Shown here in pieces: positions 1 to 55,479 of a DNA stretch of 64,000 bases (positions within the stretch are counted from its first letter, which is position 1; each line of letters opens with the position of its first letter). Location of the stretch: the NCBI GenBank assembly GCA_040954595.2, contig CM082594.2, forward strand, positions 5,193,319 to 5,257,318. Direction: 5' to 3'. The notes beneath the pieces are model-generated. The model made no database searches. It had not been told where the DNA came from and saw only the letters and a program-made list of their open reading frames with translations. The stretch is from Balanoglossus misakiensis. Taxonomy: Eukaryota; Animalia; Hemichordata. A program made the translations under genes and the position numbers.

Positions 1-27
1 TATCACTCAAGCACTGCGTAGTCTGAA

Positions 28-1196: not shown

Positions 1197-1256
<60 letters not shown>

Positions 1257-1301
1257 AACAACAACAATAATAACAATAACAAAATTACTGAGTTCCCTGT
1301 G
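28..1301. mobile_element. Non-autonomous foldback DNA transposon with ~545-570 bp TIRs and 7-bp TSD (Galileo/P-superfamily-like)
   Basis: 28-571 is the near-perfect reverse complement of 729-1301, differing mainly in (GTT/AAC)n length. The spacer is 572-728. Termini are CACAGGG...CCCTGTG, flanked by the direct repeat GTCTGAA at 21-27 and 1302-1308. Confidence 0.85.
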
Positions 1302-17119: not shown

Positions 17120-20100
17120 TTATGAAGTAGAGTCTGTTTCGATGTTTATAAGTTTTGTCATGACATCAGAGAGGTCAAAGGGCAATGGATAAGTTTCATC
17201 TGCATCTGTCCAATACGGCCGATAGTCCGGTGTGTGCTCTGGTGGTATTTGGAAGAGGTCACGATCTGAGAATCTGTGAAAGAGAGAGAGAGTTGAAACG
17301 TTTACACCTTTCTTTCTGCAAATTACATTTTTTGTACCAATGTGTACAACATAGTGTACCAGTATACTTTTCAGACACAATCTGATTAAATGATTGTCGG
17401 ACGTAACTCAAACCATTGGGCAATGTTCATTTGGCTGTGGTTCTTATCTACTGCTGTAAGAAATTGTATGTTCCAAGCACAGTCTATACCCAGCATGTTT
17501 GTGTTGGTAAATTGCAATGGGCAGTCTACTGTAATAGTCCAATGTGTGTGTGAGGTGTCAGTATCCAGGCGCTGTATTGTATGCACATGAATAAATGCCC
17601 TGGCATTTAATTTAACCCTTTCATCCCCAATACCTGTCGAGTGGACCGACTTTACCCATGGAAATGACCAGGGTGCGGACCAAACTATTCGGGTGAAAGG
17701 GTTAAAAAGTCTTGAGCAATTTCTTGAGGAAGGACACTTACCTATTCATCCAGTGATTGCGTGATGATTGCCTCGTCGTGATCGCCAACAGCAGTGTTTG
17801 TGCCAGCGATTTATTCTTCTCTTCAACTGCGACATCTATGGCTAATTTTGTCTGAAAGTAGACAGTGCAATATTTCACTTCAGTGTTCCTCTCAGTTAGA
17901 CTCAGCCCGAGAAGACGCAGATTTTTGCAAAAATGCTTACATAAATGCGTTGCTCCCCTTTAAGAAATCATGTTTAACATTAGAATCAATATTAGAAAAA
18001 AACACTATGCAAGGTGCCTAAAAAACAACAAATACCAATTACAAGTTTACTTCCATCAACTAACTCACCATCACTTCCATCTGATGCCAGTGGTTTTCCA
18101 GCTCCTGCATGGGATCGATCCAGTACTCGCGTTCCTTGGCATGCTGAGCTCCTTGCATCCAAAATTGTCGCAGCCACTCAAATTCCACCTGAAAATACAC
18201 GCGAGTACTCTAATCAACCCTGATGAAACCCCAAGAATATAATTACATATACATGTGCTACAATTTCTTTACATCCTGTCTCGGTACTGAGTGATAGGAT
18301 TGTACACATCATTTTAAACATTGCTGCATTCCATGGGCTACTTTATGCTACAAGTTTCAAATATCAGCAGAGCAGAGCAGAGTCGAACATGATGCACGAT
18401 CCAGGCAGAAAAACACTGTCAATATAAATAGCAACAAAACAACAATAACCCATGAATCTGTGACTACCTCAAAATCTCACCTCATTGTGGACTTCTTCTG
18501 TAAATCTGATTGTTTCACATTCAATCGATTGCAGAGACACACGTCCGTTGCTGTCTTCATTGCGGTTTTCCAACGCTTTATGACATCTGTGTTGTATGTC
18601 CGACAGCATGTCACACTGGTGGACACAGAAGATAGAAAACAAGTCAATGTAAATAATAAACTATTACTACACTTTAAGATTTCTGTCTACGTGCTTGTTG
18701 TCAAAATGAGTCGAAACTACAACAACTCTGGCATACAAGATTGGTATTGGGTGTTGCTGCTGTTTTACAATTCTAAAAGTCACTGGCCAATAACTGGCCA
18801 AATTTGCAAGTGGTTAATCATATCATACTGTTAGTCAGTTGTGAGTGTAAAGGCTAAGTCCGCACACTATGGTGTTAGTTAGGACAAAACATGACATACA
18901 GAGTATTTGAAGGTGCATATTCACTCTTCAAACTTTGAAGTCACAATTCTATGTGATTCTGTGCCCAACCTGTGGTAATAATTTGTACATGTAACCGTGA
19001 CAACATCATCTGACTTGGACGACATTGTCATTACCGGTAATTCACTAATCCCCATATTTTGCCTGGTAATATAACATACCTTTGTCATCCTGTACGTAGC
19101 ACTATACCTTGGTGCAGACCCGGCAATGACGCAGTGCTGATGCGTGTCGTTCATGGTGTCCAACATGTAGTAACATTCTCCATCGCTAAGTGGCGTGGCG
19201 ACAGCTGTAATATCCGTGTTCCACGCAACTTTCAGACCAATCTTCCATTCTTCATCTTCCTCTGATTCAGAATCTGTGAATATTATGAATATAAATGCAA
19301 AAACAATTGCCATATCATAAAACAGATACTGAGATTACGGTATATAAAAGATACAATGCTACATGTCAGGACTGTTCTCCATTGTATTCTAAGCAGTGTG
19401 CCCTCTAACAAACATAAACAAAAGCTTTGAGCCACTTTGATGATTTCTAGTCAGCCCTATACCTTTACATGTATCATGTATAATTTTCTCAAGTCACCAG
19501 TGGGTTTGTTGAGTCAGTGGTATATCATAGGGGCTTAGAGGGCACACTGATTCTGAGTGAGACTTCTGCCTTGACAAAGACAGTAGCATATAGCATTTTT
19601 GATCAACAGACAAGAACATTGTGTGTTTTGACATCTGTTCAGTGTTTGATAAAATGCCATACAGCAACTCCTAAGTAAGTTACCATTGCTGCTTGTCAGA
19701 TGAGGAGACTGATGGACTGTTAAGAATTAGTTCGAATGCGAAGAAGTAATTCTCAGTGTATACTTACTCCGACAGGTATGGTTGTAGACGGCCACAGTGG
19801 AACCCTGCACTAAACCCTCGTCGCTATGCCAACTGACAGCCAATCTGCCCATGCCAAAGTACGGCTCTGGTTTCAAGTGCACGCGACGTGGATCCATGTA
19901 ATTCAGAAGGGTCAGGTTGAAACTGCTGTTCCGTTCAATCACATCGCCGGCGTCGCTTTTCCCACTGGAGTGTTCCAGAGGATCCGGTATGTCCACATTT
20001 TCTGTTTCGGTTACATCTTCAGTCTCTCGTTTTGAACCCACACTTGATTTGGCACTCTTCTCATCATGCTCCCTCAGTTTCTGCACCACCAGATGTTTGC

Positions 20101-21278
20101 TGCGCTCGCAGAAATAACTGTTCAACTCTTTGAAGACACCGCACGCCTTTTCGATGTCGTTACCCGGCCGCCTCCCCGCGAAGGACCACGGCAACGTAAA
20201 CAGTCGCAAATTGAGATACTTGTACGTCAGACCAGGCTCACCAATCAGAGTCCTCGATACTTGAGTCAGAATGGTTTTGTTGTAGATTTTGACTCTGTCT
20301 TGATAGAAGTAACCATGGTTACACAGTGTTTCAAAGGCCCATTGAATTCTCTTGTGAAAGTCAGACGGTATGTTTTCTTTGGGCTGCACCACGAAATTGG
20401 AATAGCTCTCTTTTACCTGCAAGGAATGAATAAGTGTAATTACAACAAATGCTCAGTATTAGATTTGCAGCAATTTACAATTCAAGAATCATTAAAATGA
20501 GCTATACGCTGTTCACTCTGACATAGGAATTTAATCCTAAAATTTGTCAGTAAGTTTGCCAATGTGTGTGATATAAAATCATGCTCTGGGCATTTCTTTT
20601 TTCATAATACAAGTACATGTTATCTGAATTCTGACACAACATTGGATAAATATGTGGCAGCCTGAAAGTCAGTTCACTACTACATGAAAGAATCTGATGA
20701 AACTTACCACTCGTTCATACTCTTTGCAGGATGGTGTAAGGAACTCACAGTGGTTTTGTAAATTCTGAATTAAGGTCTTCTTCTGTCAGGAGAAATAAAA
20801 GGGTGGGATTAAAACAGAAGCGGTTCAGAAAACTATAGCATAGGCAGGAATTAATTTGTCATGTTTATAAGATCCCAGTGTGTCATCCAGAATATTGGGG
20901 GGGGGGGGGGGGACATAATACACTGTAATAATACACTGACCCCCCCCCCCCCCGAAAAATTACTAGTGCCCCCCACCACTACCTACCTCAACATGACTTA
21001 ATCTTAGATGCGATCGCGGAAACTAAATACTTACAATCATGTACTAGCTGTGGGTGTGTACGTGTACGTCGGTCCTACGTTACAACGTACACACTGTGTA
21101 GTGTGTACATGTACTTGACTGTTAGCTGTTGATGACAGACTTTCCGCGATCGCGATCGAGGGAAAGAAGTGGCCCTCAGTTCACGATAGAAAATCATTTC
21201 TCTTACCTTTGCTCTCTTCCTCCTCTTTTCCTCGATTTCGTCCGAAGTTTCAGTTGTCTCTACCCCGCGTTTTAACAT
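17120..21278 (-). CDS. FTO: Alpha-ketoglutarate-dependent dioxygenase FTO (m6A/m6Am RNA demethylase), ~502 aa
   Basis: Eight GT-AG exons join into a 1509-nt ORF: 21278-21207, 20782-20708, 20416-19768, 19273-19080, 18615-18481, 18188-18069, 17851-17742, 17273-17120. FTO-specific motifs: VSRTLIGEPGLTYKYLNLRLF, TLLNYMDP, LKPEPYFGMG, VSWHSDE, THQHCVIAG...PRYSATYR, EEVHNEVEFEWLRQFWMQG, RPYW...PLPFDL. Confidence 0.96.
17616..17701. mobile_element. piggyBac-derived MITE (~85 bp, TTAA TSD); family members at 46953-47037, ~36843-36930 and ~9740-9823
   Basis: TTAA-CCCTTTCA...TGAAAGGG-TTAA, with a shared internal GGACCAAAC-like core among copies. Confidence 0.75.
19394..19549. mobile_element. hAT-type MITE in an FTO intron; a second copy, inverted, at 53345-53504 in a UBXN6 intron
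   Basis: TIR CAGTGTGCCCTCTAA...TTAGAGGGCACACTG with 8-bp TSD ATTCTAAG/ATTCTGAG. The internal sequence is shared with the 53345 copy. Confidence 0.8.
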
Positions 21279-21988
21279 TTTCTTGAGCTGTCATCACGAA
21301 CGAGCAATCATTTCAGGAAGTAAACAAACACATGACCTATGACCCTTTAGGGTCAAGCAAAGTTGTGAATGCTGAACAGTCACAGTCGTTTGTGTTTACA
21401 TCAATCCCTTGGTACAAATATTTTTTTTATAATGTTAACACATTTTACAATATTAAATATTAAATAAAAAGCGTACGTAATCTATAAACTGTATGTACCC
21501 GTTCCCAGGTATGGAGCGCCCTCAAACAAACAACCTTCGACCTTTGACCTCATGTTTGCGACGGAACAGCCATGTGTGCAGCCCAAACAAAAATTACCTC
21601 TAACTACCACCGCAACGAACACCCGTGGTTGTCCAAACCCCAGACCTACAAGGAGGAGCCCGAATCCACATGGAAACTACGGTAATAACATTATATTTTG
21701 CATGTGTTTCATTCGCTTCGGCATCGCTTTTAAGTTGGTCGCCATGTTGGAAAATGTGGTGCATCCTGGGATGGATGCGGGTCAAGATGTGAAACAGAAT
21801 CTGCTGGCTGAATTGGTTTCTAAGCAAATTCTCATGTTGGCACGAGCTTATTCAGTGTCTATAAAATAATTTATCTGTCAATTTTCCAGAGTTCAGTGAT
21901 GGGGTCGTCCAACTCATGCCAAGGTACATCCAGCAGTAGCCTCCGGATCACATGATCTTAGATCTGGAACCTTGTCACTAGGAGAGAT

Positions 21989-22631
21989 ATGGATCACAGA
22001 ACATTTACAACAATGGTGGATGTATGGAAGAGGAAACTGGCAATGCTGTACTCAGGTGAGATTTCTGTTATTTAGAAATAAACTATTACTGTCACAAAAT
22101 TGCTAGTTATTTTCTTGCATAGTTAAATGATATATAACAGTGACACCCTAAATTCAATTTTAAAGATTATCATAATCTGAAATGATTGTTTTGTAAATGA
22201 TTGTCATTGTTATCTTAATTTGTCCAACTCCAAGTCAATCTTTAGAAATAAGTAAGTTTTTGTGAATTTTAGAATGACCCTAGAAATATAATCTGAAATC
22301 ATCACACAAAATGACTGACTTGCTGGACATGAAGTCTGAAATCACCACCATAATTACTGACTTGGTTTGCAATTTTTGTATTTCTTGCATATGACCAAAA
22401 GAGAACGGTCGCGGCGTCCTGAAACCCGCCCAAGAGCTGCCCCAAGTGCCGGAGCAGAGACCCCCGCCGCCACCAGGCATCCCTGCCGGACACCCGCAGC
22501 AGAGGGCCATCAAGGAGGAGGACACTGTCCCGCTGACCCATCTAGACGACGGCATCGACCAGGCCCGCTACGTGCAGGATATGGTGGCGCAGTGCTGCCC
22601 CCAGCAGTACGTGGAGGGCTGTGTGTACTGA
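21989..22631 (+). pseudogene. Orphan PEA3/ETV1-4-5-like C-terminal exon (22402-22631) lacking the ETS domain, possibly spliced to an unrelated upstream exon (21989-22055) as a 98-aa chimeric ORF
   Basis: The GC-rich segment translates to ...IKEEDTVPLTHLDDG...QCCPQQYVEGCVY*, resembling the ETV1 C-terminus as recalled (INEEDTVPLSHFDE...CC...YNEGYVY*). No ETS-domain exons lie upstream. A 3'UTR-like tail carries AATAAA at ~23432. Confidence 0.6.
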
Positions 22632-24370
22632 TCCGATCGCGTCCAGGACGTTGCTATAGCTACGAGTACTTGGCTACTCATTGTTTCAAAACTTGTACAC
22701 ATTATATACATAAGCCAATCAGAGGCTGCGTTATAGCCAGATGATTAGCCATGTGACCAATTGGAACACTTCTTAATAACCAGCCATGTGATCAATTTCC
22801 TCTTCAAGGATTGGTCTGAGCTGTGATTTTCTTTTTTAAAACTTAACAATTTTGTCATCTGTTGGAAAATAACAAACCATTTTAACATTTTTTTGTTGAA
22901 TCTGAATGAATTCAAGAAATTTCCAAATTACAACATTTTGGAATTACTGTACAACTTTCCGGGGGATCTGTGTCTGAAAAGGAACGATGAAAATGTATTT
23001 TTGTAGTTTTTGTTTTTCATGTTTGCGTCAACTTGTAAATGGGCATGTAAATGGCCCGATAGAAGTACCAGACACCCTAGATGAATGAAAATTCACAAGT
23101 TCTGACTTGTTCTTACCGGTGATAAAGATCTCTATATTTCTAAAGTTTTGAGGATGGTCGCGGATTATACACGGATTGTGTATCAAATATGACTTCCCAC
23201 ATCACTGAGGGGGTCTTATGAAAACTGCAGGTTCTATCTGTGACAGAATCTTCATCCACTGCAGATCATGAAAATGTTTGCTTTTTGGTGACACGTAACT
23301 ATACACTGTTCAATATGTCGACTTCTTCCAATTGTAGTCCTCTCTATTATCCTGTACAAATCCAAGTCTGTTGCCTTGACAACAGACAGCAGATTTTTAA
23401 GATTTGTATTTTGATCATACCTTGCTATTTGAATAAAAACTTTTGTAAATACAAAATGAGATGTCTCTGTAACTTTTATTTGCTTGTGGTTCTAAGTGCC
23501 GAAAAATGTCCGTTTATAGAACCACCATGTTTCTAAGGGCCAAAAAATGTCTGACCATTTTTTCCGTCATTACTTAATTTTTCCGAATGTTTTTATATTT
23601 AATTTGAATTTTTATCATATTGATACCGATTGAATATTGTTTGATCATTTTATAGCGCTTTCAGCTATACTGAATTACATGACATGAATTAGATTTCTTA
23701 CATCTCCCGCCAGGTGGCATGTTTCAAGATGGCATCGTCTCTTTCTCGCACAGTGCCCTCTGAAGACGAGAGTAAGAGTAAGAGAGTCTGGGTAACCGAG
23801 ACTTAGGGACCGTTCAGTTTTTACGGCAGGGTGGGGGGGGGGGGGGGGGGGGGGTCGGCAAGTTTGTGTCACGGGTTTTCAAAATCAGGCCGACCCCCCC
23901 TTCACCCAGCACCCAAAAATATGATGACCCCCCCCCACGCTGAAAACATTCGCCGTCCTGATCCTATGTACACTGTATGCAATAAAGGGAACGAGGCTCC
24001 TCACACCTCAATTATAAATTTCTTTAAGTAATCGAATTATATAATAATATCGTTGCAATAAAGAAATCTATGAACAACATAAAATGACAAGTCAATACAA
24101 TAGTTGCTAGAATTGGTAAAACAAGAAAAGTGGGGGGTGGGGGGAAAGAAAATTTTGTAAAATACGGTGCTTAAAGTTGCATTTTAATGAACTCAAAAGC
24201 AAGGCAGGACAAATTTTGATTTTGCCACTCCACTCTAAGTAAGCATAGGGGTGGGGTGGGAATAAGTCTGCCCTGGTACACTACACAGGCGCTCAAGACG
24301 ATCGCTTCGCGATGGGGTGGGGGGATCGGTTCGCGTTGGGGTGGGGGGGCTCAGTACCCCTAAAATATAA

Positions 24371-27300
24371 ATTTTTGACAAAAATCATGGATTATAGCTC
24401 ATGAAAATCATCCAAAAATGACAATTTTTCGACTTTGCGAAATATCAAAATGTCTTCATTTTTTTGAAAAAACCATGGGTTATAGCTCATGAAAATCATC
24501 CAAAAATGACAATTTTTCGACTTTGCAAAATATCAAAATTTCTTCATTTTTTTGAAAAAACCATGGGTTATAGCTCATGAAAATAAACCAAAAATGACAA
24601 TTTTTCGACTTTGAGAAATATCAAAATTTCTTCATTTTTTTGAAAAAACCATGGGTTATAGCTCATGAAAATCATCCAAAAATGACAATTTTTCGACTTT
24701 GCGAAATATCAAATTTTCTTCATTTTTTTGAAAAAACCATGGGTTATAGCTCATGAAAATCATCCAAAAATGACAATTTTTCGACTTTGCGAAATATCAA
24801 AATTTCTTCATATTTTTGAAAAAACCATGGGTTATAGCTCATGAAAATCATCCAAAAATGACAATTTTTCGACTTTGCGAAATATCAAAATTTCTTCATT
24901 TTTTTGAAAAAACCATGGGTTATAGCTCATGAAAATCATCCAAAAATGACAATTTTTCGACTTTGCGAAATATCAAAATTTCTTCATTTTTTTTAAAAAA
25001 CCATGGGTTATAGCTCATGAAAATCATCCAAAAATGACAATTTTTCGACTTTGCGAAATATCAAAATTTCTTCATTTTTTTGAAAAAACCATGGGTTATA
25101 GCTCATGAAAATCATCCAAAAATGACAATTTTTCGACTTTGCGAAATATCAAAATTTCTTCATTTTTTTGAAAAAACCATGGGTTATAGCTCATGAAAAT
25201 CATCCAAAAATGACAATTTTACGACTTTGCGAAATATCAAAATTTCTCCATTTTTTTGAAAAAACCATGGGTTATAGCTCATGAAAATCATCCAAAAATG
25301 ACAATTTTTCGACTTTGCGAAATATCAAAATTTCTTCATTTTTTTGAAAAAACCATGGGTTATAGCTCATGAAAATCATCCAAAAATGACAATTTTTCGA
25401 CTTTGCGAAATATCAAAATTTCTTCATATTTTTGAAAAAACCATGGGTTATAGCTCATGAAAATCATCCAAAAATGACAATTTTTCGACTTTGCGAAATA
25501 TCAAAATTTCTTCATTTTTTTGAAAAAACCATGGGTTATAGCTAATGAAAATCATCCAAAAATGACAATTTTTCGACTTTGCGAAATATCAAAATTTCTT
25601 CATTTTTTTGAAAAAACCATGGGTTATAGCTCATGAAAATCATCCAAAAATGACAATTTTTCGACTTTGCGAAATATCAAAATTTCTTCATTTTTTTGAA
25701 AAAACCATGGGTTATAGCTCATGAAAATCATCCAAAAATGACAATTTTTCGACTTTGCGAAATATCAAAATTTCTTCATTTTTTTAAAAAACCATGGGTT
25801 ATAGCTCATGAAAATCATCCAAAAATGACAATTTTTCGACTTTGCGAAATATCAAAATTTCTTCATTTTTTTTAAAAAACCATGGGTTATAGCTCATGAA
25901 AATCATCCAAAAATGACAATTTTTCGACTTTGCGAAATATCAAAATTTCTTCATTTTTTTAAAAAAACCATGGGTTATAGCTCATGAAAATCATCCAAAA
26001 ATGACAATTTTTCGACTTTGCGAAATATCAAAATTTCTTCATTTTTTTTAAAAAACCATGGGTTATAGCTCATGAAAATCATCCAAAAATGACAATTTTT
26101 CGACTTTGCGAAATATCAAAATTTCTTCATTTTTTTAAAAAAACCATGGGTTATAGCTCATGAAAATCATCCAAAAATGACAATTTTTCGACTTTGCGAA
26201 ATATCAAAATTTCTTCATTTTTTAAAAAAAACCATGGGTTATAGCTCATGAAAATCATCCAAAAATGACAATTTTTCGACTTTGCGAAATATCAAAATTT
26301 CTTCATTTTTTTGAAAAAAACCATGGGTTATAGCTCATGAAAATAATCCAAAAATGACAATTTTTCGACTTTGCGAAATATCAAAATTTCTTCATTTTTT
26401 TGAAAAAACCATGGGTTATAGCTCATGAAAATCATCCAAAAATGACAATTTTTCGACTTTGCGAAATATCAAAATTTCTTCATTTTTTTGAAAAAACCAT
26501 GGGTTATAGCTCATGAAAATCATCCAAAAATGACAATTTTTCGACTTTGCGAAATATCAAAATTTCTTCATTTTTTTGAAAAAACCATGGGTTATAGCTC
26601 ATGAAAATCAACCAAAAATGACAATTTTTCGACTTTGAGAAATATCAAAATTTCTTCATTTTTTTGAAAAAACCATGGGTTATAGCTCATGAAAATCATC
26701 CAAAAATGACAATTTTTCGACTTTGCGAAATATCAAAATTTCTTCATTTTTTTGAAAAAACCATGGGTTATAGCTCATGAAAATCATCCAAAAATGACAA
26801 TTTTTCGACTTTGCGAAATATCAAAATTTCTTCATATTTTTGAAAAAACCATGGGTTATAGCTCATGAAAATCATCCAAAAATGACAATTTTTCGACTTT
26901 GCGAAATATCAAAATTTCTTCATTTTTTTGAAAAAACCATGGGTTATAGCTCATGAAAATCATCCAAAAATGACAATTTTTCGACTTTGCGAAATATCAA
27001 AATTTCTTCATTTTTTTGAAAAAACCATGGGTTATAGCTCATGAAAATCATCCAAAAATGACAATTTTTCGACTTTGCGAAATATCAAAATTTCTTCATT
27101 TTTTTGAAAAAACCATGGGTTATAGCTCATGAAAATCATCCAAAAATGACAATTTTTCGACTTTGCGAAATATCAAAATTTCTTCATTTTTTTGAAAAAA
27201 ACCATGGGTTATAGCTCATGAAAATCATCCAAAAATGACAATTTTTCGACTTTGCGAAACATCAAAATTTCTTCATTTTTTTGAAAAAACCATGGGTTAT

Positions 27301-30300
27301 AGCTCATGAAAATCATCCAAAAATGACAATTTTTCGACTTTGCGAAATATCAAAATTTCTTCATTTTTTTTAAAAAACCATGGGTTATAGCTCATGAAAA
27401 TCATCCAAAAATGACAATTTTTCGACTTTGCGAAATATCAAAATTTCTTCATTTTTTTGAAAAAAACCATGGGTTATAGCTCATGAAAATCATCCAAAAA
27501 TGACAATTTTTCGACTTTGCGAAATATCAAAATTTCTTCATTTTTTTGAAAAAAACCATGGGTTATAGCTCATGAAAATCATCCAAAAATGACAATTTTT
27601 CGACTTTGCGAAATATCAAAATTTCTTCATTTTTTTGAAAAAAACCATGGGTTATAGCTCATGAAAATCATCCAAAAATGACAATTTTTCGACTTTGCGA
27701 AATATCAAAATTTCTTCATTTTTTTGAAAAAACCATGGGTTATAGCTCATGAAAATCATCCAAAAATGACAATTTTTCGACTTTGCGAAATATCAAAATT
27801 TCTTCATTTTTTTGAAAAAACCATGGGTCATAGCTCATGAAAATCATCCAAAAATGACAATTTTTCGACTTTGCAAAATATCAAAATTTCTTCATTTTTT
27901 TGAAAAAACCATGGGTCATAGCTCATGAAAATCAACCAAAAATGACAATTTTTCGACTTTGAGAAATATCAAAATTTCTTCATTTTTTTGAAAAAACCAT
28001 GGGTTATAGCTCATGAAAATCATCCAAAAATGACATTTTTTCGACTTTGCGAAATATCAAATTTTCTTCATTTTTTTGAAAAAACCATGGGTTATAGCTC
28101 ATGAAATTCATCCAAAAATGACAATTTTTCGACTTTGCGAAATATCAAAATTTCTTCATATTTTTGAAAAAACCATGGGTTATAGCTCATGAAAATCATC
28201 CAAAAATGACAATTTTTCGACTTTGCGAAATATCAAAATTTCTTCATTTTTTTGAAAAAACCATGGGTTATAGCTCATGAAAATCATCCAAAAATGACAA
28301 TTTTTCGACTTTGCGAAATATCAAAATTTCTTCATTTTTTTGAAAAAACCATGGGTTATAGCTCATGAAAATCATCCAAAAATGACAATTTTTCGACTTT
28401 GCGAAATATCAAAATTTCTTCATTTTTTTGAAAAAACCATGGGTTATAGCTCATGAAAATCATCCAAAAATGGCAATTTTTCGACTTTGCGAAATATCAA
28501 AATTTCTTCATTTTTTTGAAAAAACCATGGGTTATAGCTCATGAAAATCATCCAAAAATGACAATTTTTCGACTTTGCGAAATATCAAAATTTCTTCATT
28601 TTTTTGAAAAAACCATGGGTTATAGCTCATGAAAATCATCCAAAAATGACAATTTTTCGACTTTGCGAAATATCAAAATTTCTTCATTTTTTTGAAAAAA
28701 CCATGGGTTATAGCTCATGAAAATCATCCAAAAATGACAATTTTTCGACTTTGAGAAATATCAAAATTTCTTCATTTTTTTGAAAAAACCATGGGTTATA
28801 GCTCATGAAAATCAACCAAAAATGACAATTTTTCGACTTTGAGAAATATCAAAATTTCTTCATTTTTTTGAAAAAACCATGGGTTATAGCTCATGAAAAT
28901 CATCCAAAAATGACAATTTTTCGACTTTGCGAAATATCAAAATTTCTTCATTTTTTTGAAAAAACCATGGGTTATAGCTCATGAAAATCATCCAAAAATG
29001 ACAATTTTTCGACTTTGCGAAATATCAAAATTTCTTCATATTTTTGAAAAAACCATGGGTTATAGCTCATGAAAATCATCCAAAAATGACAATTTTTCGA
29101 CTTTGCGAAATATCAAAATTTCTTCATTTTTTTGAAAAAACCATGGGTTATAGCTCATGAAAATCATCCAAAAATGACAATTTTTCGACTTTGCGAAATA
29201 TCAAAATTTCTTCATTTTTTTTAAAAAACCATGGGTTATAGCTCATGAAAATCATCCAAAAATGACAATTTTTCGACTTTGCGAAATATCAAAATTTCTT
29301 CATTTTTTTGAAAAAAACCATGGGTTATAGCTCATGAAAATCATCCAAAAATGACAATTTTTCGACTTTGCGAAACATCAAAATTTCTTCATTTTTTTGA
29401 AAAAACCATGGGTTATAGCTCATAAAAATCATCCAAAAATGACAATTTTTCGACTTTGCGAAATATCAAAATTTCTTCATTTTTTTGAAAAAACCATGGG
29501 TTATAGCTCATGAAAATCATCCAAAAATGACAATTTTTCGACTTTGCGAAATATCAAAATTTCTTCATTTTTTTGAAAAAACCATGGGTTATAGCTCATG
29601 AAAATCATCCAAAAATGACAATTTTTCGACTTTGCGAAATATCAAAATTTCTTCATTTTTTTGAAAAAACCATGGGTTATAGCTCATGAAAATCATCCAA
29701 AAATGACAATTTTTCGACTTTGCGAAATATCAAAATTTCTTCATTTTTTTGAAAAAACCATGGGTTATAGCTCATGAAAATCATCCAAAAATGACAATTT
29801 TTCGACTTTGCGAAATATCAAAATTTCTTCATTTTTTTGAAAAAACCATGGGTTATAGCTCATGAAAATCATCCAAAAATGACAATTTTTCGACTTTGCG
29901 AAATATCAAAATTTCTTCATTTTTTTGAAAAAACCATGGGTTATAGCTCATGAAAATCATCCAAAAATGACAATTTTTCGACTTTGCGAAATATCAAAAT
30001 TTCTTCATTTTTTTGAAAAAACCATGGGTTATAGCTCATGAAAATCAACCAAAAATGACAATTTTTCGACTTTGAGAAATATCAAAATTTCTTCATTTTT
30101 TTGAAAAAACCATGGGTTATAGCTCATGAAAATCATCCAAAAATGACAATTTTTCGACTTTGCGAAATATCAAAATTTCTTCATATTTTTGAAAAAACCA
30201 TGGGTTATAGCTCATGAAAATCATCCAAAAATGACAATTTTTCGACTTTGCGAAATATCAAAATTTCTTCATTTTTTTGAAAAAACCATGGGTTATAGCT

Positions 30301-39900: not shown

Positions 39901-41173
39901 TATTTTTATTCTATTAGTTTGTCTTTTCACAAATCATATTTATTTTTTTCTGGTCGAACTGATGGAGTGATTACGGTATTTTAAAATCCATTTCTATCTA
40001 AGCTGACAGAGTGAAGTGTTTCAGGAATGCTTCAATCAGCGAAGCTGATTTTTCTTGTGAATTATGGACATTTCAGTGCTACATGCAGTAGCCAACTTCA
40101 CACAGACGGATAATTATGCTGATTTTTGTATGTGTATACACAGGCAATGCCTTACCTGTATTATTGGTTCAACTTCAACCACCTCTTCTTTTTTCTTCGG
40201 TTCCACCTGCCAAAATCATTATAACATTTTTTTACAGAAATCTAAATCATACATTTATACAAGTGTCCAAATACCATGTGACACAGTGAAATACAATTCA
40301 ATGCTGCAGTACAATGCAATACAAAACATGACACAACACAAATCAAATCACAGCACCACACTATACCATACCACACCACACCACAGCACTACATGACAAC
40401 ATAGTACAACACAACACAACACAACACAATACAACACAACACAACACAACACAACACAATTCTGCATTGGTGAATACTGCAACTGTCAAAATCACACCAG
40501 GAAGGAAAAATTACCTGAAGTGAGACTCGCTTGGCTGCAGTCCTAGGCGTGGGTTTGGGTTCAGCATCTGACGGCTTTTCCGCCGGCATGGGTGTGGACG
40601 TTGCAATGGGTGGATGTCTGGGCCCTTTCACTGGTGTCTGTGTTAAGGACTGTTCAACCGCCTTTGTTGATGCTCTTGGGGAGCCACCCTAAATCAAACA
40701 ATGCAAATTGTAATTAACGAGGAAAAAGTCTCAAAATGTCAATATTATTACAGATGTATAGATGTGCTGCCCTAACTCTGCTTCTTCGCACAACTTGAAA
40801 ATGAGAATCAGATATCCTTCATTTTTTGACATACAAGTAGGGTTGAAGGTGTATACAGCAGCAAAATATGGTACTTTTTCTCCTTGTAAAAGTACTAGAC
40901 TGACTACTACACAAACACAATTTGGTCCAACCCTATTGTCAATAGTGAACTAGAAAAAGGGTAATTTAGAAAATAAGGATTTTTTAAAACTTTGAAGACA
41001 TGATGCGTACCTTGACTTGTTTTGCAGAAGGTGAAATGGTCTTGGGTGGAAAGTAACTGTACTGCCACTTTAACTGCATATCCATTGTGCCGTTACCTTT
41101 ACCAGAGGACTGTGAAGGAATAGAGGATAAAACTGAGTGATCATATAATGTCTTTGATTATAATCAAATGGAT

Positions 41174-41228
<55 letters not shown>

Positions 41229-44200
41229 AGAACAAAATTACTGAAAATAAAAACTGACAAAAATTTGACTAAGCAGCTGCAGTATCTAAGATTACCACCT
41301 ACCGTTTTAAGTTCAAATGTGCCTTTGATAGCTTTGTCGTGCGCCAGACTTATCAACGGAACTTTGGCAACACCAAGATACGCCACCTCCTCTGGATCAG
41401 TATCATCAAACACATACACTGAAAGCATCTGTAATGAGAATGTGAAGTCAATAGTCATTACATGTTGTATATGAATTATATATTCTAAATAATGATACAA
41501 CACACTTGTATGATGAGTAGTGTCTATTTCTCAATACTCATGTCAGTCAGTACCCACTGACTTTTTCTGGATGTATTTGCGAACCACTTGGCTTAGCAAT
41601 CACTCCACCAACATAATTACTCTAAGAGTCTCACCTCTGTTTTGAGATAGGTGTCCAAGTCCTCGTTGACTGGCACAGGGTACATCTTGCTGTCGTTGAA
41701 CTCTGGGTTGTTGCTGTTTGGTATGATCACCGAGTCGTGGTCTTCAAAATCAAAGAATCTGTACACGCAGTAGGGACTTGGTTGAACTCCTGTGAGGAGA
41801 TATACATTGTACATAATTCAGATCATGAATTACATACAATTAAATGTCATGTAGACTAACAGTATGTCCCAATCACAGTCAGCTGACGTGCAGAGATTGA
41901 CCTTATTGAGTAACCTTACCATCTCTCCTGGCCTTTATGTTTGACACTCTGATGACCTTGACGATCAGCTCATTCAGCGATTTATCCCTCGTTTCTGATT
42001 GGGCGGCTGTCTCTAACGCCTTAATGGCTTCTTTTGTTGCTTTGGTATTCGCTGTCATGTAACCCAGTGCCTTAGTTCTCTCCTGTCGGGGAAAAGAGAA
42101 ATGTCCTCAATTTCATTTTCAGTCCATGGAGGTCGTTGTACCATTTCAAGTTGTGGCAGTCCAGTGGTTGCACAAAAATATACAATGTACCAAAACATCA
42201 CTGATTTGTACTGTGAGTACTCTGTTTATTTCAGCTGCAAACCTGATACACACTGATACTAGAGAGTCACAAATAGTGTTTCTTGTAAAAAAACTGAGAT
42301 ATTTCTTACCCTGAACAGCCTCAGTGCTTGGTCCATGGGCACACGTAGTCTAACCCAGTATGCTACTTCACCATAATTTGTACCAACGCGCCCACCAGAT
42401 ACACCTGCAGTGTCAGAAAATATAATACGGCAACATTTATTGGGTGTCACACAGCGAATATAATGTGGGCCATCCCAAGCAGAAAGTGTCTTGGAGCGCG
42501 ATACTTATGACCATAAGACCCCTTTCTGCTTAGGATGGCCTATGTAACAAAGCTGAATTTATTTCTTACAGACCTCTGTTGTTCAGAGACAACCGACCCA
42601 CCTGTAAGCTGTGCAGTACTGTGCAATCTTCCGTGAGGCTTCTCCAGGAGATCCCGGAATCTCAGCTGGCAAGCAGCCACCGTTTTGTACTCCGTGCCCA
42701 GGGCTTGGTGCACCTCCAGCGTAGTGGACTCCTTCATCAGGTGGTGGAGGAAGAAATCGTCCACGGTCACCACGTACTGAGAGGTGAAATCAAATCCTGG
42801 CCTGCAGAAAAAAATTTTCATTGAAATATATTTAGATACGTCAGTTGGTTTGAAAATTTGAATTGTGGGTGGGTGTTGTCCCATCTGGTTCCCATGGTAA
42901 CTATGTGGCTGGTGTTATATACATATTGGCAAACAATGCATCATAACTTTTTACAACGTTGCCAAGTTACTTGGATGTAACCATTCTCCGTACAGAGATT
43001 GTAGCTACCCTAGCCACACCCCTAGCTAGATTAGAATTATCCTCGCGCTACAATCTCTGTACGGAGAATGGGGTATAACATGTATTGGTGGGCAGGGTCA
43101 CCCTGAACAGTAGGAACAATGTCACAAACCTTTGACAAATACTGACTTTAAATTCAACTTACCGGTCTCCCTTCAGGACTGGTGTTGATTGAACTTCAAA
43201 TTCAAAGAATTCATAAGTGACGAAAGTTGAAGGTTCCTCATCGCCCATCTCTCGAAGAGCGTCTCTGCTGTACGTGATCTGATACAGAAAGTTGGAAGTG
43301 ACATCAGTGTTCAAGTGAATGTCAGAGAATGATGATGATGTTGTTATCGATAATCTGATCCAGTGAAATTACGCATTCAAAACGTTGATGTCTTCATTTG
43401 TTAGAAATGCTATGACTTGGTCATACTTGAACATTCACTTTACACCACTCTGCATCCAAATTCTGAAAGTTCAGTTTTCTGTCTGAATTGATTTCGCTAT
43501 GACATTGAGAATAACTCACCTGTTGGACGTGGATTTCAAACACATTTTGGCCTCTCTCTAGTTTGACCGTTTCATCAATCTCTTCAAACTGATCATCGTG
43601 CTAATCAAGGAGAGAGCACAAAAAATGATGATGTTAGTGGTATGACTATACTGCTGTGGATAATTATTTCCAAAATGCAATTAATGCCTCATGTAAGATA
43701 TTTTATCAGCTCACTGCATATGGCTACACTTTCTGACACAGATCATTTGAACTTTGACCCCTCACAGAAATAATACATGCCCTTTAACCTCATTCCTAGT
43801 AGCCTTAAAACAACTTGCTCAGTGACGTACCTCAAATACATCTTTGAGTTTGATCTGTTTGGTTCCATATGCAATGTCTTTAAGTTGATGTTCAAGTTTC
43901 TATAATAAAAAGAAAAGAAAAAACACAATCAGTTATCTATTGTTGATTTTTTGAATTATATATGTCTTTGAACAAGCAATAGTCCAATGACTTCAGTAGA
44001 AGAATATGCATTAAATTATCATGAATACAAAAAATATGACATCATTTTTTTTAGATGACACTCACTCTAATCCTTGTAGCTCTGATGTCCAACATCTGCG
44101 CATATTCTCCCAGTTTGGTGTCGTATTCTCTCTTGTAATCGTCTAATCTCTGGGTGGCGTTTTCGACTTCCTGTTGGTAGTCGGAGTTGATCTTATGCTG

Positions 44201-47200
44201 AAGAATCAACATATTTCTAGTCTTCTCCAGTTCCTCCGCCGTCTCTGCATGCTCAGCTTGTAGTGCAACTATCTGGTGTTTCAAATCTGTCAAAGAAAGA
44301 GGAGTGTTTCAAAGTGCTGTTACAAGAGGAGGTCGTTTACAGTTGAACAATTTTTAAGTACGTTTCAAGAAGTCAAACAGTATAGACAGCTTTTTTGTAT
44401 CAAACACAATCGACACACACACAAAAATTCAAAAGATATCCCTTTAATAAATCTACTGTATTCAGATTTACTGAGTATTGTAATTTTTCAGTTCATAGTA
44501 AATTCCACCAAATGGAGAACTGTTACTTCTCATTTCATAATGCACATAACAAATAGTCTTGCAATTATAGTACATGTATACCTTTATTCAGTTCTTCATC
44601 CACCTTTTCTAAGAATTCAAGCTCTTGGCTGCCAGCCTCTTTGCGTTTCTATAAGGAGAGAGAGAAAAAGATGACAATGCAGAGTATAATCTACATAGGG
44701 AATGGGTTGACAAAAATCATCAAAAGGAGGTCTACAATGCATATGAATTTCAAAAGGATCTGTATTGAAGCAGGTATGAAAAAATAGCGTCAAGGACACT
44801 GTGGTCCCATTTGAGGACATAGCACATAGCAACATAGCAATGGATGGCAAGATATGGAAAAGTAGGTCAAAGGTCACCTGAGGTCATGCAAAATTTGGGC
44901 AAGAAATTTTGACCCTATACTGGTCCAAGTTGAACAAAAACCAAACCTATAGCCCTATTGGTTAGCCTGTAATTAGGTATGCACATAATTAATGAGATAT
45001 GCAGGTGTCACAGGTGACCCATATTTTGGCTTTTAAATTTTAGTCCCAACCCTCCAAACGCGAAGTCTGTATCTGCTCTGGATGCCAAGATATGATAAAG
45101 TAGGTCAAAGGTCACCTGAGGTCATGCAAAATTTGGGCAAGAAATTTTGACCTTATACTGGTCCATGTTCAATAAAAACCAAACCTATAGCCTTATTGGT
45201 TAGCCTAGGATTAGGTATGCACATAATTAATGAGATATGCAGGTGTCACAGGTGACCCCCAATTTTGGCTTTTCAATTTTAGTGCCAACCCTCCAAACGC
45301 CAACTCTGTACCTGCTCTAGATGCCAAGATATGGTAAAGTAGGTCAAAGGTCACCTAAGGTCATGCAAAATTTGGGCAAGAAATTTTGACCCTATACTGG
45401 TCCATGTTCAACAAAAACCAAACCTATAGCCTTATTGGTTAGCCTGGAATTAGGTATGCACATAATTAATGAGATATGCAGGTGTCACAGGTGACCCCCA
45501 ATTTTGGCTTCTCAATTTTAGTGCTAATCCTCCAAACGCCAAGTCTGTACCTGCTCTGGATGCCAAGATATGGAAAAGTAGGTCAAAGGTCACCTGAGGT
45601 CATGCAAAATTTGGGCAAGAAATTTTGACCCTATACTGGTCCATGTTCAACAAAAACCAAACCTATAGCCCTATTGGTTAGCCTGGAATTAGGTATGCAC
45701 ATAATTAATGAGATATGCAGGTGTCACAGGTGACCCATATTTTGGCTTTTCAATTTTAGTCCCAACCCTCCAAACGCCAAGTCTGTACCTGCTCTGGATG
45801 CCCAGATATAGGAAAGTAGGTCAAAGGTCACCTGAGGTCACCCAAAATTTGGGCAAGAAATTTTGACCCTATACTGGTCCATGTCCCACAAGAACGAAAC
45901 CTCTAGCCCTATTAATTAGCCCGGAATTAGGTATGCACATAATTAATGTGTTAAGCAGGTGTTACAGGTGAGCCCAAAAATTTGCCTTTTATTTTGGCCC
46001 CATTGTGCTCACTGGCCAATAGACAGTCACTGTACAGGACTATTGCACAGACCAGAATTCCACAATAAGACGTGGACATAGCTTAACCATAGAGGTATAA
46101 GTAAAGGTATAAATTTAATAAAAAGACTAAAAAATTCATAAAAAATAAAACATCCATGATATCAACTTAACACTTACAGGTCGGTGTGAGGTTGACATAA
46201 GGTACATACATATCAATTTTCAAAGCAATCTGACCAGTAATTGTTGACTTACAGAGTTTTGATCAATTTCACATTTTACAAGCTAATTTGCATATTTTTG
46301 GGCCTGGCAACTTCGTTTGGACAAACTCCCATCTACAGCCCAGCCTGCACCTACACACCAAATATTGAGGTGATACGCGCAGCGGTTTTCAAGTTTTTGA
46401 TGTGGACGGACATACAGACATACATCCATACATCCATACATCCATACATCCATACATCCATACATCCATCCATCCATACATACATACAGACGCAACCCAT
46501 CCCATAAGGTCCCATGGTATATAGGCCTATACCAATGGGACCTAAAAACAGTTAGTCCACTTTCATGACCACTGAGTGACCCTACATCCTGGCATTTTGT
46601 AGGTATAGAACAAACCAATAGGGCAGACCCAATTGCTAATATAACTATATGGATTGCACATACATCGTACAAATAAATTAGCAATAAAGTCACACTGACT
46701 GAATTCAAGCTCACCTTGACAAGGATCAGTGCCTCTTCCAGCTCCTGGAAATCGACGGCGCTTTCTTTTGTGAAGAATTTCATCTTTTCTTGCAGCTCGT
46801 CAAGCTGTTGTTTTGTGGAGTAATATCGGATTTGGGCCTCTCTGTGTTCTTGTTCTAACTTTTCTCTGGTCTCTGCAGGAGTGGAAGCATTAAAAGTATT
46901 TTAAATATCCAATTTATTGTGAAAAAAATTCCTGGTTTTGGATGCAGGTTAACCCTTTCACCCCCAGTTCTCTCTCGAGAGATCAAACTCTACCATGTGC
47001 AACAATGGATTTGGACCAAACCATGGTGGTGAAAGGGTTAAGGATGTAAAAGCCTTGGGGACAGATTTTCAGAATAGTGACAATCCTCCAATCTTTTAAA
47101 TTCGTTGCTAACATTAAAGCGTGTGAGGAGTTTTCTTGGTATCAACACTGTCTACTGTCTCACAGAAAACGGGTTTGGATGAACAAATTCAAAAACAACA

Positions 47201-50200
47201 CATCACCTGAAAATGAACCCAGAAAGACACTTACCTCGCTCATCGGTGAGTTTGTCGAGGATGGTATTCTTATCATTCAGATCTCCCTTCAGAGTGGCTT
47301 CCAACTGAGCTATCTGTAACTTCAACTGTTTGTCATTGGCGCGGTACTGTCTTTCCCTCTCTGCATCAAAGGCACTGAAAGAGATGCGAGGCACATCATA
47401 TGAAAATGTATTCTCACAGAGAAATGTTTTGGATACTTCACTGATAGTTCCCAGTGGTATATCAATGCTACTCGGGTTGCCAATCATGTTGGGGTCTTGA
47501 AAATGACCTATTGAACTTCAAATATTGTTTGTGATACAAGTAACTGTAGTTCAGATGATGGTAATTCTTCATACAAAAGTTGTCCAAGTCTGCGAATTAC
47601 CTGTTCAGAAGTTTTTCATTAGCTTCCTTCAGGATTTCCCTCTCTCTCTCCAAGTCAGATATTCTTTCCTGAAACTGTATTTTGAAGATGAAATAATCTG
47701 ATTAGTGTGGAGGTTCATTTCACTTTATCATACCTTGATTCTGATGACATAGTTTTATGGTTGACGTACATCTTGTTCACATTCCTCTTTGTCACCGAAC
47801 AACTGGGGTTGTTATTTTGCCTAAAGTCCAATTGATATGTCAAGTAAAGGCGGTATAGAAACCAAGATAATCTTGTGCTTCCTTAGTCCATATGTGTCTA
47901 TTATTTATTCTTTGTGACCACTCAGTATATCCCATCATAGCATGTGCACTATAATGAATTTTCCGAAATCACACTACATCTGTATAAAGAGATCTGCAAC
48001 AGACACTATACTGAAATCAAGAGAATTTTTTAAATAAAAAGGACTGACCTCACCGAGCTGTCTCTGGGTGATGGTGCCACTCTTCAATTCACTCTGCAGA
48101 GTCACCACTTTGTTTTGTTCCGACTGCAGCTGCCTCGTCAACTTGTCCATCTCCATGATCACGGCTTCGTGGCTGCCTTTCACGGTACGCAGATTCTGAA
48201 CACACAGAAACACATCAATGAAAATTAGTCACTATACACTGTCAATGTGTAAAATTAAATGACCTGACCAGCATTCTGAGAAGGTATCATCAGTTACTAA
48301 GAATGAAGAGACACGAACTTACATCTTCCAGACTCTGGTACTGTGCCTGCATCCCAGTCAGTTTGGTCGCTTTCTCTTTCAGTTCCCTCTGAAGTCGGAT
48401 CAACTCCACATTCTCCTGGATGTTAGTTCTGACGTGCAAGTAAAAAAGAAAAGGACATAAGAGTTTAGTAACAAACACAGAATGTGTCACAGGCATTTTA
48501 TTTTGATGTCTACCATTCTTTGCATTCACCATTGACAACCACAGGAACGAGATATATCATTGAACATGTGGCTATATGTGGATATAATGTCACTGGACCA
48601 CACAGTTTTGTATACAGATGCATCAAGCATTTGTCTAGTCTCACACACTGTCTGTGATACCCAAGCTAATTGTTCGACATTGTAATACAATATACTTGTT
48701 TCACACACAGTTTGCAAGGTAAACTGAAATTTACTGTATCTCACTCTCAGTGTACATGTAATGCACTACCACTTTGCAAGGCATCTAACAAGCTGCCTGG
48801 CTTCTTTGAAATATGGTGACATCACGGAAGGGTAGGTCTTACCTCTGCCCAGCTGACATCTCTGTACGTAACCTCAGCACTTCATCCTCATGCTCCCGAA
48901 TGCGTCCCTCCGCCTGCACAAAATACAAATGATATAAATATTGCACTGCTTTGAACAATGATTAAAACACCACAACAAACAATGTACAGGAAAAATAAGA
49001 TTCTGGCAAAAACTGCTGGATTAGTCAAAGTCCTGCAGTGATTACTGGTGCACCACATGGTGACCAAAAACCCTCACAGGACAAAAATGTACCTTACCTG
49101 ATCTCTGAGCATCTCTGCATCATGTTCCATGATCTGAATCTGGTCTTGAAGTTGCCTTATGTAGTCATCTCTGTAAGAGAGAATACAATATGGAAAATAA
49201 TGTCAACACGATTATAAGCAATATTCTGTGTTCAGTACAGGGCTGAGCACATCCAGTGGTCTGAGGTCTAGAATAACTGTACAATCAGCCCCCTCCCCCC
49301 AAAGGTTGTTGCAATTCTTGTATTACAATGTACTTACAACTGTTTGTTCTCAGCTCTTGCTTCTTCTAATAGACTGTGTCCGTATCTTGGTAAGACATCA
49401 TTCCTGAATGCACGCGGAGTTGCAGACCTGTGGGTTTCAAATTCAAAGTATTAATGTAATGAACAATTGGGTAATGTGTCTGATTTCAGTGAATTCCTTG
49501 AAAAAGTTAATTTACATACTTAGCTCCTTCGCCTTGTACTCTGAGTCCCCTCTTGATTCTGTCGGACGGAGGTGGTTTGGGGCCTCTTCCCTGTTGAAGG
49601 GCAGCAAATAAAACTCAAATAAAACTACATCGTACATCCTGAGAATTAAACTTATTCAGCTACGTATATCTACACATTAACTATAGAAAATGCGGAATGT
49701 ATGACATTAAAAAATATTGATGAAAACACACAAGCCATTTTCTGTACACAGAAAAAACATGATTTTCACATCAGATACTTACAGTATCAATCCTGGAATT
49801 GACATAGGTGTAAGGGTCTGTCCTCTTGGCCCCCTGTGTTGCCAGTTGTTGCTTAGCAACCATTAGCTACAAAAGCACAGAAGATGATAAATGTTAAAGA
49901 AAGTACTAGAGGAACGAAAACAAGAAAATGTGTACGCATTCGGCCCATCTTCACATTTGGCAAAAATCTTTCAATCTTGTCTATTGTACTAAGGCTATGA
50001 CAACTTACCTTGTTTCTGAGTTGTTCATTTTGCTTTTCCAAATCCCTCACTTTTTCATGTAAATCTTCCAGCATCTGTTCCGTTTCGATGTCTCGAACTT
50101 TTCCTCCGCCTATCCCTTCACGATGCTGAACTTTCTTCTTGTCATTCACCAACCTGAGAAGTTTGGTGGCCATCCTAGGAAAAGTAAATGATAGGCTATT

Positions 50201-50903
50201 ACTATACTGAATTCGGGATAAAATGTGACAAACTGCAATACACTGCTTACTTTACAAGAATAGGTTTATAAATTTGTTCCTGAATTTACCATGTTACAGT
50301 AGTTGTAAATATTAATTGACTTGGTGGTAATATACATAGGCAAAAACAACAAATCACACAGCAAGATGTCTGGAAACTAAATTTATTACGCCACCAATGA
50401 AACTGACAGGTGCTCATAAGAGAGCTACTCAGTATTACCTCTTGATTTTGTCCTCTTGTTTTCTTCCATGTTTCTTCAACACAATATTGTCTTCATACAA
50501 CCTGAGGTATTTATCCTCCAATTCATCTCGACTCCACTTGGCAATGGCTCTCCTCTGCTGGCCTTGTTTGTGTTCAGCATCGACTGAAAGAGACATAAAC
50601 GTACATCACGTAAGCGAGAGAAACACTGTGAAATTAAACAATGATTATAATAACTCCAGTTGTAACAATATACTGGCTATCTTTAGCAGAAGAATATACT
50701 GTTACATGTTACATGTTACATGTTACATGTTACAGAAAGTCAAAAGTTATGACATTGTAAATGTTGGATAAAAAGGAAAGAAACATACTTCCATCTTCTT
50801 CCAGGTTGACGTAACCACCGGCTCCATATTTACCAGGGTTATCTCTCACAGGTTCATCATATGCAGTTTCGTCTGCTACCGGTGCGTATGGTGGACCAGG
50901 CAT
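36971..50903 (-). CDS. RPGRIP1L: Protein fantom / RPGRIP1-like ciliary transition-zone protein (coiled coils plus three C2 domains), roughly 33 coding exons
   Basis: ATG at 50903 ([21 protein letters not shown]). Exons encode [16 protein letters not shown]...[120 protein letters not shown] and SEPPE...DCEDIG. The last exon is 37089-36971. A non-coding first exon has its donor at ~51532. Confidence 0.95.
40300..40460. repeat. (ACAAC/ACACC)n pentanucleotide microsatellite
   Basis: Directly visible intronic tandem pentamers. Confidence 0.8.
41174..41228. repeat. (ATC)n microsatellite
   Basis: Directly visible, in an RPGRIP1L intron. Confidence 0.9.
42981..43071. mobile_element. Short MITE-like hairpin with 25-bp perfect TIRs
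   Basis: CCATTCTCCGTACAGAGATTGTAGC ... GCTACAATCTCTGTACGGAGAATGG. Confidence 0.65.
44680..46548 (+). mobile_element. Helentron-associated non-autonomous element (HINE-like) carrying 5 copies of a 238-239-bp repeat
   Basis: Subterminal inverted motif GGGAATGGGTTG (~44698) and CAACCCATCCC (~46493). Tandem units at 44861, 45099, 45338, 45577 and 45815. (CATA/CATC)n microsatellite at 46410-46490. 3' hairpin AGGTCCCA...TGGGACCT (46507-46543) followed by an A-tract. The left boundary is approximate. Confidence 0.72.
46953..47037. mobile_element. piggyBac-derived MITE with TTAA TSD
   Basis: TTAA-CCCTTTCACC...GGTGAAAGGG-TTAA. Confidence 0.8.
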
Positions 50904-51719
50904 GTTTTCATCAATTTCTTGACCAACTTCCTCTATATGATAGTTGATACAAAAGAAGACGAGAAACGTCACTCAACACAATATTTATGAAGAATCTCAA
51001 AATGAACATTTATCGAATATTACAGGTACAAAAATCCTCTCGATGGAAACAGTGTTCCATTATCTTATACATGAATGATGTTCTGAAAACTACAAACGTT
51101 GCATAATCTCTTTGTTTACAATATACATTGTGTTATTACACAATATTATTGTTATTGTTTATCTAAGCCTAGGGGTACAAATAACAGCAAACTTAATAGT
51201 GTCAAAATAATAGACAGTTTCTCTTAAGATTTCCTGGGCTCTGCACAAATGCTTATCTCCAGCCTACAATTTGAAATCGACATTGGTTACTCAGGTATGA
51301 CATTCGTTGGATTTCAGTACTTGGATTGAGAACTGACCACTTGGCAATATTCCAACGGATGGATCTGTGTGCACACACACATGAAACTACCGTTTGAATA
51401 TTGCCATTTATTAGTGAAATTACAAGATAATACGGTATTTAAATGCAATGCATGGTTTCAACTTTGTCAACAAGATACAGTAGTCTGATATTTAAAATTC
51501 GTACACCTTGGCTTTTAATCGATTACCCTCACCTGAGATCGATTCGTGATAGTTCAAAATAAGCAGTGATAGAATACTTACAAAATGACCACAGCTGCAG
51601 CACAGTTGGGTACGCCTAAACGACGTGTTTGTCAATGTTTGGGATCTACTTCGGCTCCATTAACTTCCACAGTTATTATGAAGTACAGACGAACCCCACT
51701 ACAACAAATATTTCGGTTT

Positions 51720-51800
51720 GGTTACCTCAATGGGCATGCGCATTACTCTGGTCAACGCAGAAGGGAATATAAAATACGCATGCGCAAGCTTCGCTAGCTA
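51720..51800 (-). promoter_or_regulatory. Probable RPGRIP1L promoter with two NRF1-like GCATGCGCA motifs
   Basis: GGGCATGCGCA (~51732) and ACGCATGCGCA (~51776) lie in a CpG-richer stretch just upstream of the non-coding exon whose donor is at ~51532. Confidence 0.45.
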
Positions 51801-55357: not shown

Positions 55358-55398
<41 letters not shown>

Positions 55399-55422
55399 CC
55401 ACCACCACCACCACCAGCATCG

Positions 55423-55479
<57 letters not shown>

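Follow-up and report, generated by a model that had tools for sequence, protein, structure and literature searches.

Tandem FTO and RPGRIP1L genes in the acorn worm Balanoglossus misakiensis: probably an ancient gene pair with changed orientation

The gene pair and the interval between its members

A 64-kb window of the genome of the acorn worm Balanoglossus misakiensis (the window being the whole stretch of DNA analysed here) carries the genes FTO, for an Fe/2OG RNA demethylase, and RPGRIP1L, for fantom, in tandem on the minus strand (Table 1). The stop codon of RPGRIP1L lies 15,692 bp from the start codon of FTO, the starts of the two genes are 29.6 kb apart, and no intact gene was found among the frames of the interval, in which the join across an 88-bp satellite is unspanned by contigs. 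An earlier note on this DNA had placed the two genes on the same strand, 15.7 kb apart, with a satellite and a gene fragment between them; our gene models and Pfam matches confirm this layout, and both intervening features are real, with a high-copy repeat and the RPGRIP1L 3' untranslated region (UTR) now added to them. In vertebrates the two genes form part of the RPGRIP1L-FTO-IRX3/5/6 locus, human 16q12.2 (Hunt 2015, PMC4671217; Harmston 2017, PMC5585340). As in that locus, FTO and RPGRIP1L of B. misakiensis lie side by side without an intervening intact gene, and FTO keeps its catalytic residues; the human genes, however, point away from a shared start region. Probably, the pair adds a new case to the ancient microsyntenic pairs whose orientation has changed, and it does so at the medically famous obesity locus.

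The FTO model has GT-AG boundaries at all introns and a frame open over its 502 codons. Both FTO domains were detected on separate exons, namely FTO_NTD (PF12933, E = 1.5e-60 and 6.7e-23) and FTO_CTD (PF12934), and all 12 PDB matches of the large exon are FTO chains (E = 4e-43). In an alignment to an ape FTO protein, the HxD...H iron triad, the two arginines for 2-oxoglutarate and the substrate residues are all retained, the last of these being the equivalents of R96, Y108 and N205, labelled after human FTO. In a tree of 17 proteins, the gene was grouped with the orthologues in the enteropneusts Glandiceps and Saccoglossus (support 99/96). The introns are 217-494 nt long (median 424) and 2,650 nt in total, so that FTO spans 4.2 kb and differs from the vertebrate gene in holding 2.65 kb of intron and one intron fewer; six of the seven introns sit where vertebrate isoforms have a junction, 15 of the 19 isoform pairs being informative.

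Three sequencing runs of one sample (X1, X2 and X3) entered the analysis as contigs only. We read X3 as an RNA library, though it is listed as 'DNA?', because its contigs are spliced: they skip four of the seven introns of FTO (2, 5, 6 and 7) and two of RPGRIP1L. Contigs of X1 and X2 depart from the window sequence at numerous positions (16500-24295 and 35150-44700), among them an in-frame deletion of 12 bases near 20018 in exon 3 of FTO; these differences suggest high heterozygosity or a different individual.

RPGRIP1L is present at full length, with the coiled coil, the C2-C2 region and the RPGR-interacting C-terminal domain present (Pfam C2-C2_1 and RPGR1_C). Along its own length, the product bears 73.7% identity to the 'protein fantom-like' of Glandiceps; identity to that of Saccoglossus is 68.4%, and a quick tree of 15 fantom proteins united the three (support 100). 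The invertebrate gene is described in Wiegering 2018 (PMC5978567) as the pre-duplication gene, co-orthologous to RPGRIP1L and RPGRIP1. The end of the 3' UTR lies about 260 bp from the satellite. A 239-bp tandem repeat (4.8 copies, 44841-45990) sits inside the longest intron. Upstream of RPGRIP1L lies a gene with a PUB domain and a weak UBX domain, an architecture from which we presume it to be UBXN6-like.

Table 1. Features of the gene pair and its surroundings (positions in the window; X1 and X3 are sequencing runs).
Feature	Position	Strand	Remarks
FTO coding gene	17120..21278	-	8 exons, 502 aa; ATG 21278, stop 17120
FTO exons	21278-21207, 20782-20708, 20416-19768, 19273-19080, 18615-18481, 18188-18069, 17851-17742, 17273-17120	-	
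RPGRIP1L (fantom) coding gene	36971..50903	-	33 exons, 1310 aa; ATG 50903, stop 36971
RPGRIP1L 3' UTR	35365..36970	-	X3 contigs 35376-35920, 36264-36498, 36930-37091; AATAAA at 35365
Probable promoter of RPGRIP1L with a non-coding first exon (donor 51581), inferred from sequence	51400..52000	-	CpG observed/expected 0.89-1.09
CpG-retaining region around and upstream of FTO start, likely FTO promoter	21000..21800		CpG observed/expected 0.89-1.43 versus 0.0-0.3 on both sides
PEA3/ETV1/4/5 gene remnant, an orphan C-terminal tail	22401..22631	+	starts just after ETS domain; open to normal stop
Very high-copy dispersed repeat flanking satellite	23520..24371		from X1 contig depth
88-bp satellite	24372..35108		121.9 copies, 98% matches, one orientation, in register
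UBXN6-like gene	52594..56540	-	Pfam PUB E 5.4e-20, weak UBX; stop at 52594

FTO and RPGRIP1L each possess a CpG-rich start region of their own, and divergent starts within about 1 kb, by which a bidirectional-promoter pair is recognised, do not occur between them in B. misakiensis. The two genes are not head-to-head, because it is the 3' end of the UBXN6-like gene, not FTO, that adjoins the RPGRIP1L start. As the relations of the UBXN6-like gene and RPGRIP1L sit in unique sequence, this statement is independent of the satellite join, whereas the adjacency of FTO and RPGRIP1L depends on it.

The interval itself appears to carry the marks of rearrangement. On its FTO side we found the C-terminal tail of a PEA3 gene, which matches residues 402-474 of a Glandiceps PEA3/ETV1-like protein (PEA3_N and Ets domains; E = 1.2e-23); no other PEA3 exon was found in the 64-kb window. 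The AG preceding the tail has A at -3, unlike all 39 modelled acceptors, and a UTR remnant probably reaches from the tail to about 23440. We infer that the tail is debris of a rearrangement or a capture. Next to the satellite lies the dispersed repeat, where the summed X1 contig depth at 23780-24295 amounts to tens to hundreds of thousands versus about 15-40 nearby. The high-copy repeat, the 10.7-kb satellite and the gene piece (the 23520-35108 region) could perhaps constitute one mobile element with an internal array; neither terminal repeats nor a family were established for it. If positions 22401-35108 (12.7 kb) are removed, the distance from the RPGRIP1L poly(A) signal to the FTO start shrinks to 1,379 bp.

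Another 110 frames, taken from parts of the window without annotation, gave one weak Pfam match, and none in the FTO-RPGRIP1L interval; Rfam gave zero matches on the window, and the ESM Atlas returned only bacterial matches below 0.9 for the PEA3 fragment. An X3 contig matches 22890-23406, and its first 408 letters are absent from the examined stretch, hinting at an expressed PEA3 UTR from another locus or allele. Doubled X1 depth over the tail was rejected as proof of a second PEA3 copy: single-copy sequence on either flank reaches a similar depth, and contig depth does not equal copy number. We also rejected a three-exon model starting at 21572, which would have been a complete small gene placed head-to-head with FTO, since its last piece is the truncated PEA3 tail with its atypical acceptor. 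The first two pieces of the model had no Pfam match and, in PDB, no match for the first and E = 0.99 for the second; the short plus-strand frame at 21572-21682, within the CpG-rich region of FTO, had no Pfam or PDB match and no X3 cover. X3 cover is nil over the whole of 21440-22739, which gives no weight either way on the model.

The adjacency could be spurious if two different 88-bp satellite arrays had been joined in the assembly. None of the listed contigs from the three runs, compared over the flanks, spans the array or covers a flank from end to end, and one of the flanks is the very high-copy repeat; both points weigh against a genuine pair. The array is nevertheless gap-free (the window has no N bases), of one orientation, and built of units whose shared variants overlap along it without an abrupt break, 57 of the 120 units walked being equal to the consensus. 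A random mis-join would also be unlikely to unite two genes found on one chromosome in related species and side by side in vertebrates. We regard such an artefact as highly improbable.

Linkage in other ambulacrarians

Subject to the unspanned satellite join, FTO and RPGRIP1L are adjacent in both vertebrates and B. misakiensis, as members of an ancient microsyntenic pair should be. For other species, the comparison uses scaffold lengths and RefSeq record numbers only, and it covers eight ambulacrarian assemblies with records for both genes (three further FTO-bearing species, Amphiura, Lytechinus pictus and L. variegatus, for which no fantom record was available, are not counted). FTO and fantom are on a scaffold of identical length in six of the eight: Glandiceps (24,148,329), Asterias rubens (22,717,387), A. 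amurensis (28,598,918), Diadema setosum (40,416,633), Acanthaster (2,115,401) and Patiria (7,096,946). The records of Patiria are near-consecutive, with fantom at XP_038078582/591 and FTO at 604/612 (steps of 9, 13 and 8), leaving room for at most about one record between the genes; under an assumed record density, such closeness would arise by chance in about 1% of cases. For any two genes on one chromosome, assumed gene numbers put the probability of chance adjacency at 0.2-0.3%.

Several observations weigh against an ancient tight pair. In the five other same-scaffold assemblies, the FTO and fantom records are 42, 70, 491, 574 and 715 apart, so that the genes would not be adjacent there if record order follows position. 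In Glandiceps, the record of PEA3, a gene on the same chromosome, is nearer to that of FTO (125) than the fantom record is (491). Saccoglossus carries FTO on a scaffold of 16,622 bp and fantom on one of 680,549, and Diadema antillarum carries FTO on scaffolds of 280,522 and 104,884 and fantom on one of 833,689. Patiria miniata possesses two fantom copies, on scaffolds of 18.07 Mb and 7.10 Mb, and an FTO record only on the latter. Moreover, a shared chromosome alone is expected from macrosynteny, and scanning a genome with its thousands of pairs selects adjacencies that are due to chance. Record order measures distance imperfectly, because in the one part of the Lin 2024 supplement (of 73) considered here, records from the largest chromosome alternate with those from other chromosomes. 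In the same part, two pairs of near neighbours in Schizocardium differ: the records of one pair are close in two other species, and those of the other are distant. Nearby record numbers are thus a hint that genes are close, and numbers far apart can mean either.

Under a rival reading, only the chromosome, or a broad neighbourhood, was ancestrally shared, and the adjacency arose anew by intrachromosomal shuffling with the PEA3 tail as its scar. In its favour stand the wide record spacing in five assemblies and the separate scaffolds in two; the presence of Glandiceps PEA3 on the same chromosome as Glandiceps FTO and fantom is what a within-chromosome rearrangement predicts. The neighbours in the window (UBXN6-like, AP3S-like, SnoaL, Rab-like and purple acid phosphatase genes) are, as we assume, not those of human 16q12. 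Against a new adjacency stand the low chance expectation per pair, albeit from assumed numbers, the near-consecutive records of Patiria and the shared 2.1-Mb scaffold of Acanthaster, and we consider it quite unlikely. An ancestral tight linkage of FTO and RPGRIP1L appears likely to us instead. The claim of the earlier note that the linkage predates vertebrates is thus likely to hold, on the strength of the shared scaffolds in six of the eight assemblies and the Patiria records, with the record gaps and the two split cases speaking against it.

Simakov 2015 (PMC4729200) treats FTO as a deuterostome novelty, and a table there lists one gene each in Saccoglossus and Ptychodera and zero in amphioxus, Ciona, Strongylocentrotus and all non-deuterostomes. 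In contrast to that table, we found FTO records also in sea stars, a brittle star and further sea urchins; the portions of Simakov 2015 on FTO make no statement on its synteny. Because FTO is listed there as absent from amphioxus, a comparison of the pair in amphioxus is probably impossible. No FTO of amphioxus, tunicates, cyclostomes or protostomes was among the best 120 of 127 and the best 120 of 467 matches, which is no test of absence.

Orientation of the ancestral pair

If the linkage is ancestral, it follows that one gene was inverted in one lineage, as the earlier note had claimed; two readings place the flip on different branches. We favour an ancestral FTO-RPGRIP1L pair whose orientation was flipped on the branch leading to B. 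misakiensis, and give this a probability of roughly one half. In this scenario, the two genes would have been tightly linked in the ancestor, one of them would have been inverted on that branch, and the PEA3 tail, the high-copy repeat and the satellite (12.7 kb) would be later insertions, or debris of the breakpoint, in a gap of ~1.4 kb. A shared promoter was probably not what kept the pair close in B. misakiensis; slow local gene shuffling and/or membership in a wider Irx neighbourhood may more likely account for it. The tandem arrangement may be derived because ancient 5'-5' pairs often flip and the junction looks recently rearranged. The only grounds for the direction of the inversion are a prior and the debris at the junction, and this weighs against the scenario.

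The prior comes from the main text of Irimia 2012 (PMC3514665), in which 54.8% of ancient human pairs are 5'-5', the commonest orientation, and only 51.4% of the human 5'-5' ancient pairs keep it in all species. The conserved ancestral microsyntenic pairs (CAMPs) of that study resemble the pair treated here, being unrelated genes kept adjacent across phyla with changes of orientation in some lineages. They differ in that FTO and RPGRIP1L do not appear in its main text and that adjacency by coordinates is available here for one invertebrate only.

In the second reading, which follows the line of the earlier note, the tandem order itself is ancestral, the head-to-head order with a shared promoter region having arisen by an inversion on the chordate or vertebrate stem. 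Several features of B. misakiensis accord with this: without the inserted-looking 12.7-kb block, the tandem gap is a tight 1.4 kb or so, each gene has a CpG-rich start of its own, and the UBXN6-like gene fills the slot upstream of RPGRIP1L. All evidence for ancient linkage backs an ancestral tandem as well. Nevertheless, a single species provides the tandem, ancient pairs are most often 5'-5' and frequently flip away from that order, and the interval in B. misakiensis looks recently rearranged. We hold an ancestral tandem possible but rather unlikely. The claim that the linkage was independent of a shared bidirectional promoter stands for B. misakiensis, with its separate CpG-rich starts, and lacks such footing for the ancestor, given the commonness of the 5'-5' order, the frequent flips and the rearrangement debris.

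If the linkage is indeed ancestral, the pairing of FTO and RPGRIP1L had formed before vertebrates diverged from acorn worms and echinoderms. B. misakiensis offers a natural example of the two genes being intact and spliced with no start region in common, bearing on whether the head-to-head arrangement in human is functionally required, as well as on the timing of the capture of FTO into the Irx regulatory block. The flipping of ancient pairs is common, and no new mechanism is invoked. The question can be tested directly with the existing chromosome-level assemblies of echinoderms and hemichordates.

Parts of the story are already in print, namely a hemichordate FTO and an ancient link between RPGRIP1L and Irx. 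According to the legend of Fig. 5A in Wiegering 2018 (PMC5978567), Saccoglossus, amphioxus and Lottia all have RPGRIP1L close to Irx, by which the ancient-locus claim is in part anticipated; FTO has zero matches in its text, and B. misakiensis adds FTO and the orientation. The text of Kerner 2009 gave no match to RPGRIP, Ftm or FTO, the parts of Tung 2015 considered hold nothing on synteny, and the supplements of Lin 2024, apart from one large file outside the search, gave no match to the pair. Full-text search, which did not extend to the pair table of Irimia 2012, to Maeso 2012 (Irx-Sowah) or to the supplement of Simakov 2015, found no paper on FTO-RPGRIP1L linkage outside vertebrates.

Introns, the Irx block and neighbouring genes

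From the tiny FTO introns, it had been argued that the IRX regulatory landscape inside FTO arose later or was lost here. The introns are small indeed, and with 2,650 nt in all they are unable to hold an enhancer landscape of vertebrate size; FTO in B. misakiensis does not have the long introns with conserved enhancers that mark a bystander of the Irx block. The argument itself is weak, as FTO introns are longer than those of RPGRIP1L (median 424 vs 226.5, p 0.02), and because of this the size of FTO introns reflects a compact genome rather than anything specific to FTO. A late origin of the Irx landscape is not established.

Neither Irx, Sowah nor AKTIP was recognised within the 64-kb window. 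Irx may lie just beyond it, because RPGRIP1L is reported near Irx in the legend cited above (Wiegering 2018, PMC5978567). The separate 16.6-kb scaffold of Saccoglossus FTO speaks weakly against a position of FTO between RPGRIP1L and Irx in that species. It is attractive to speculate that the human obesity locus came together in the ancestor of deuterostomes, where FTO, gained among animals on the deuterostome stem, would have landed in tandem directly beside RPGRIP1L in an old Irx neighbourhood, the shared promoter region and the IRX3/5 intronic enhancers being vertebrate additions; we think this unlikely.

Two tandem two-exon genes of the SnoaL/DUF4440-like type lie just downstream of FTO (14021-16590, minus strand), with weak to moderate Pfam matches. 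This family is bacterial-looking, and FTO itself is a proposed transfer from marine microbes. Pfam also identified a small GTPase gene of the Rab/Ras family (10629-13374, minus strand), a purple acid phosphatase gene (4613-9200, plus strand) and, upstream of the UBXN6-like gene, a clathrin adaptor small-chain gene (57823-59489, minus strand), which we take to be AP3S-like. A first-exon-like frame at 1477-1707 (minus strand), with no Pfam match, presumably resembles the start of a MATE/SLC47 gene, and two similar repeat-bearing blocks are located near the left end of the window (6-278 and 963-1340, minus strand).

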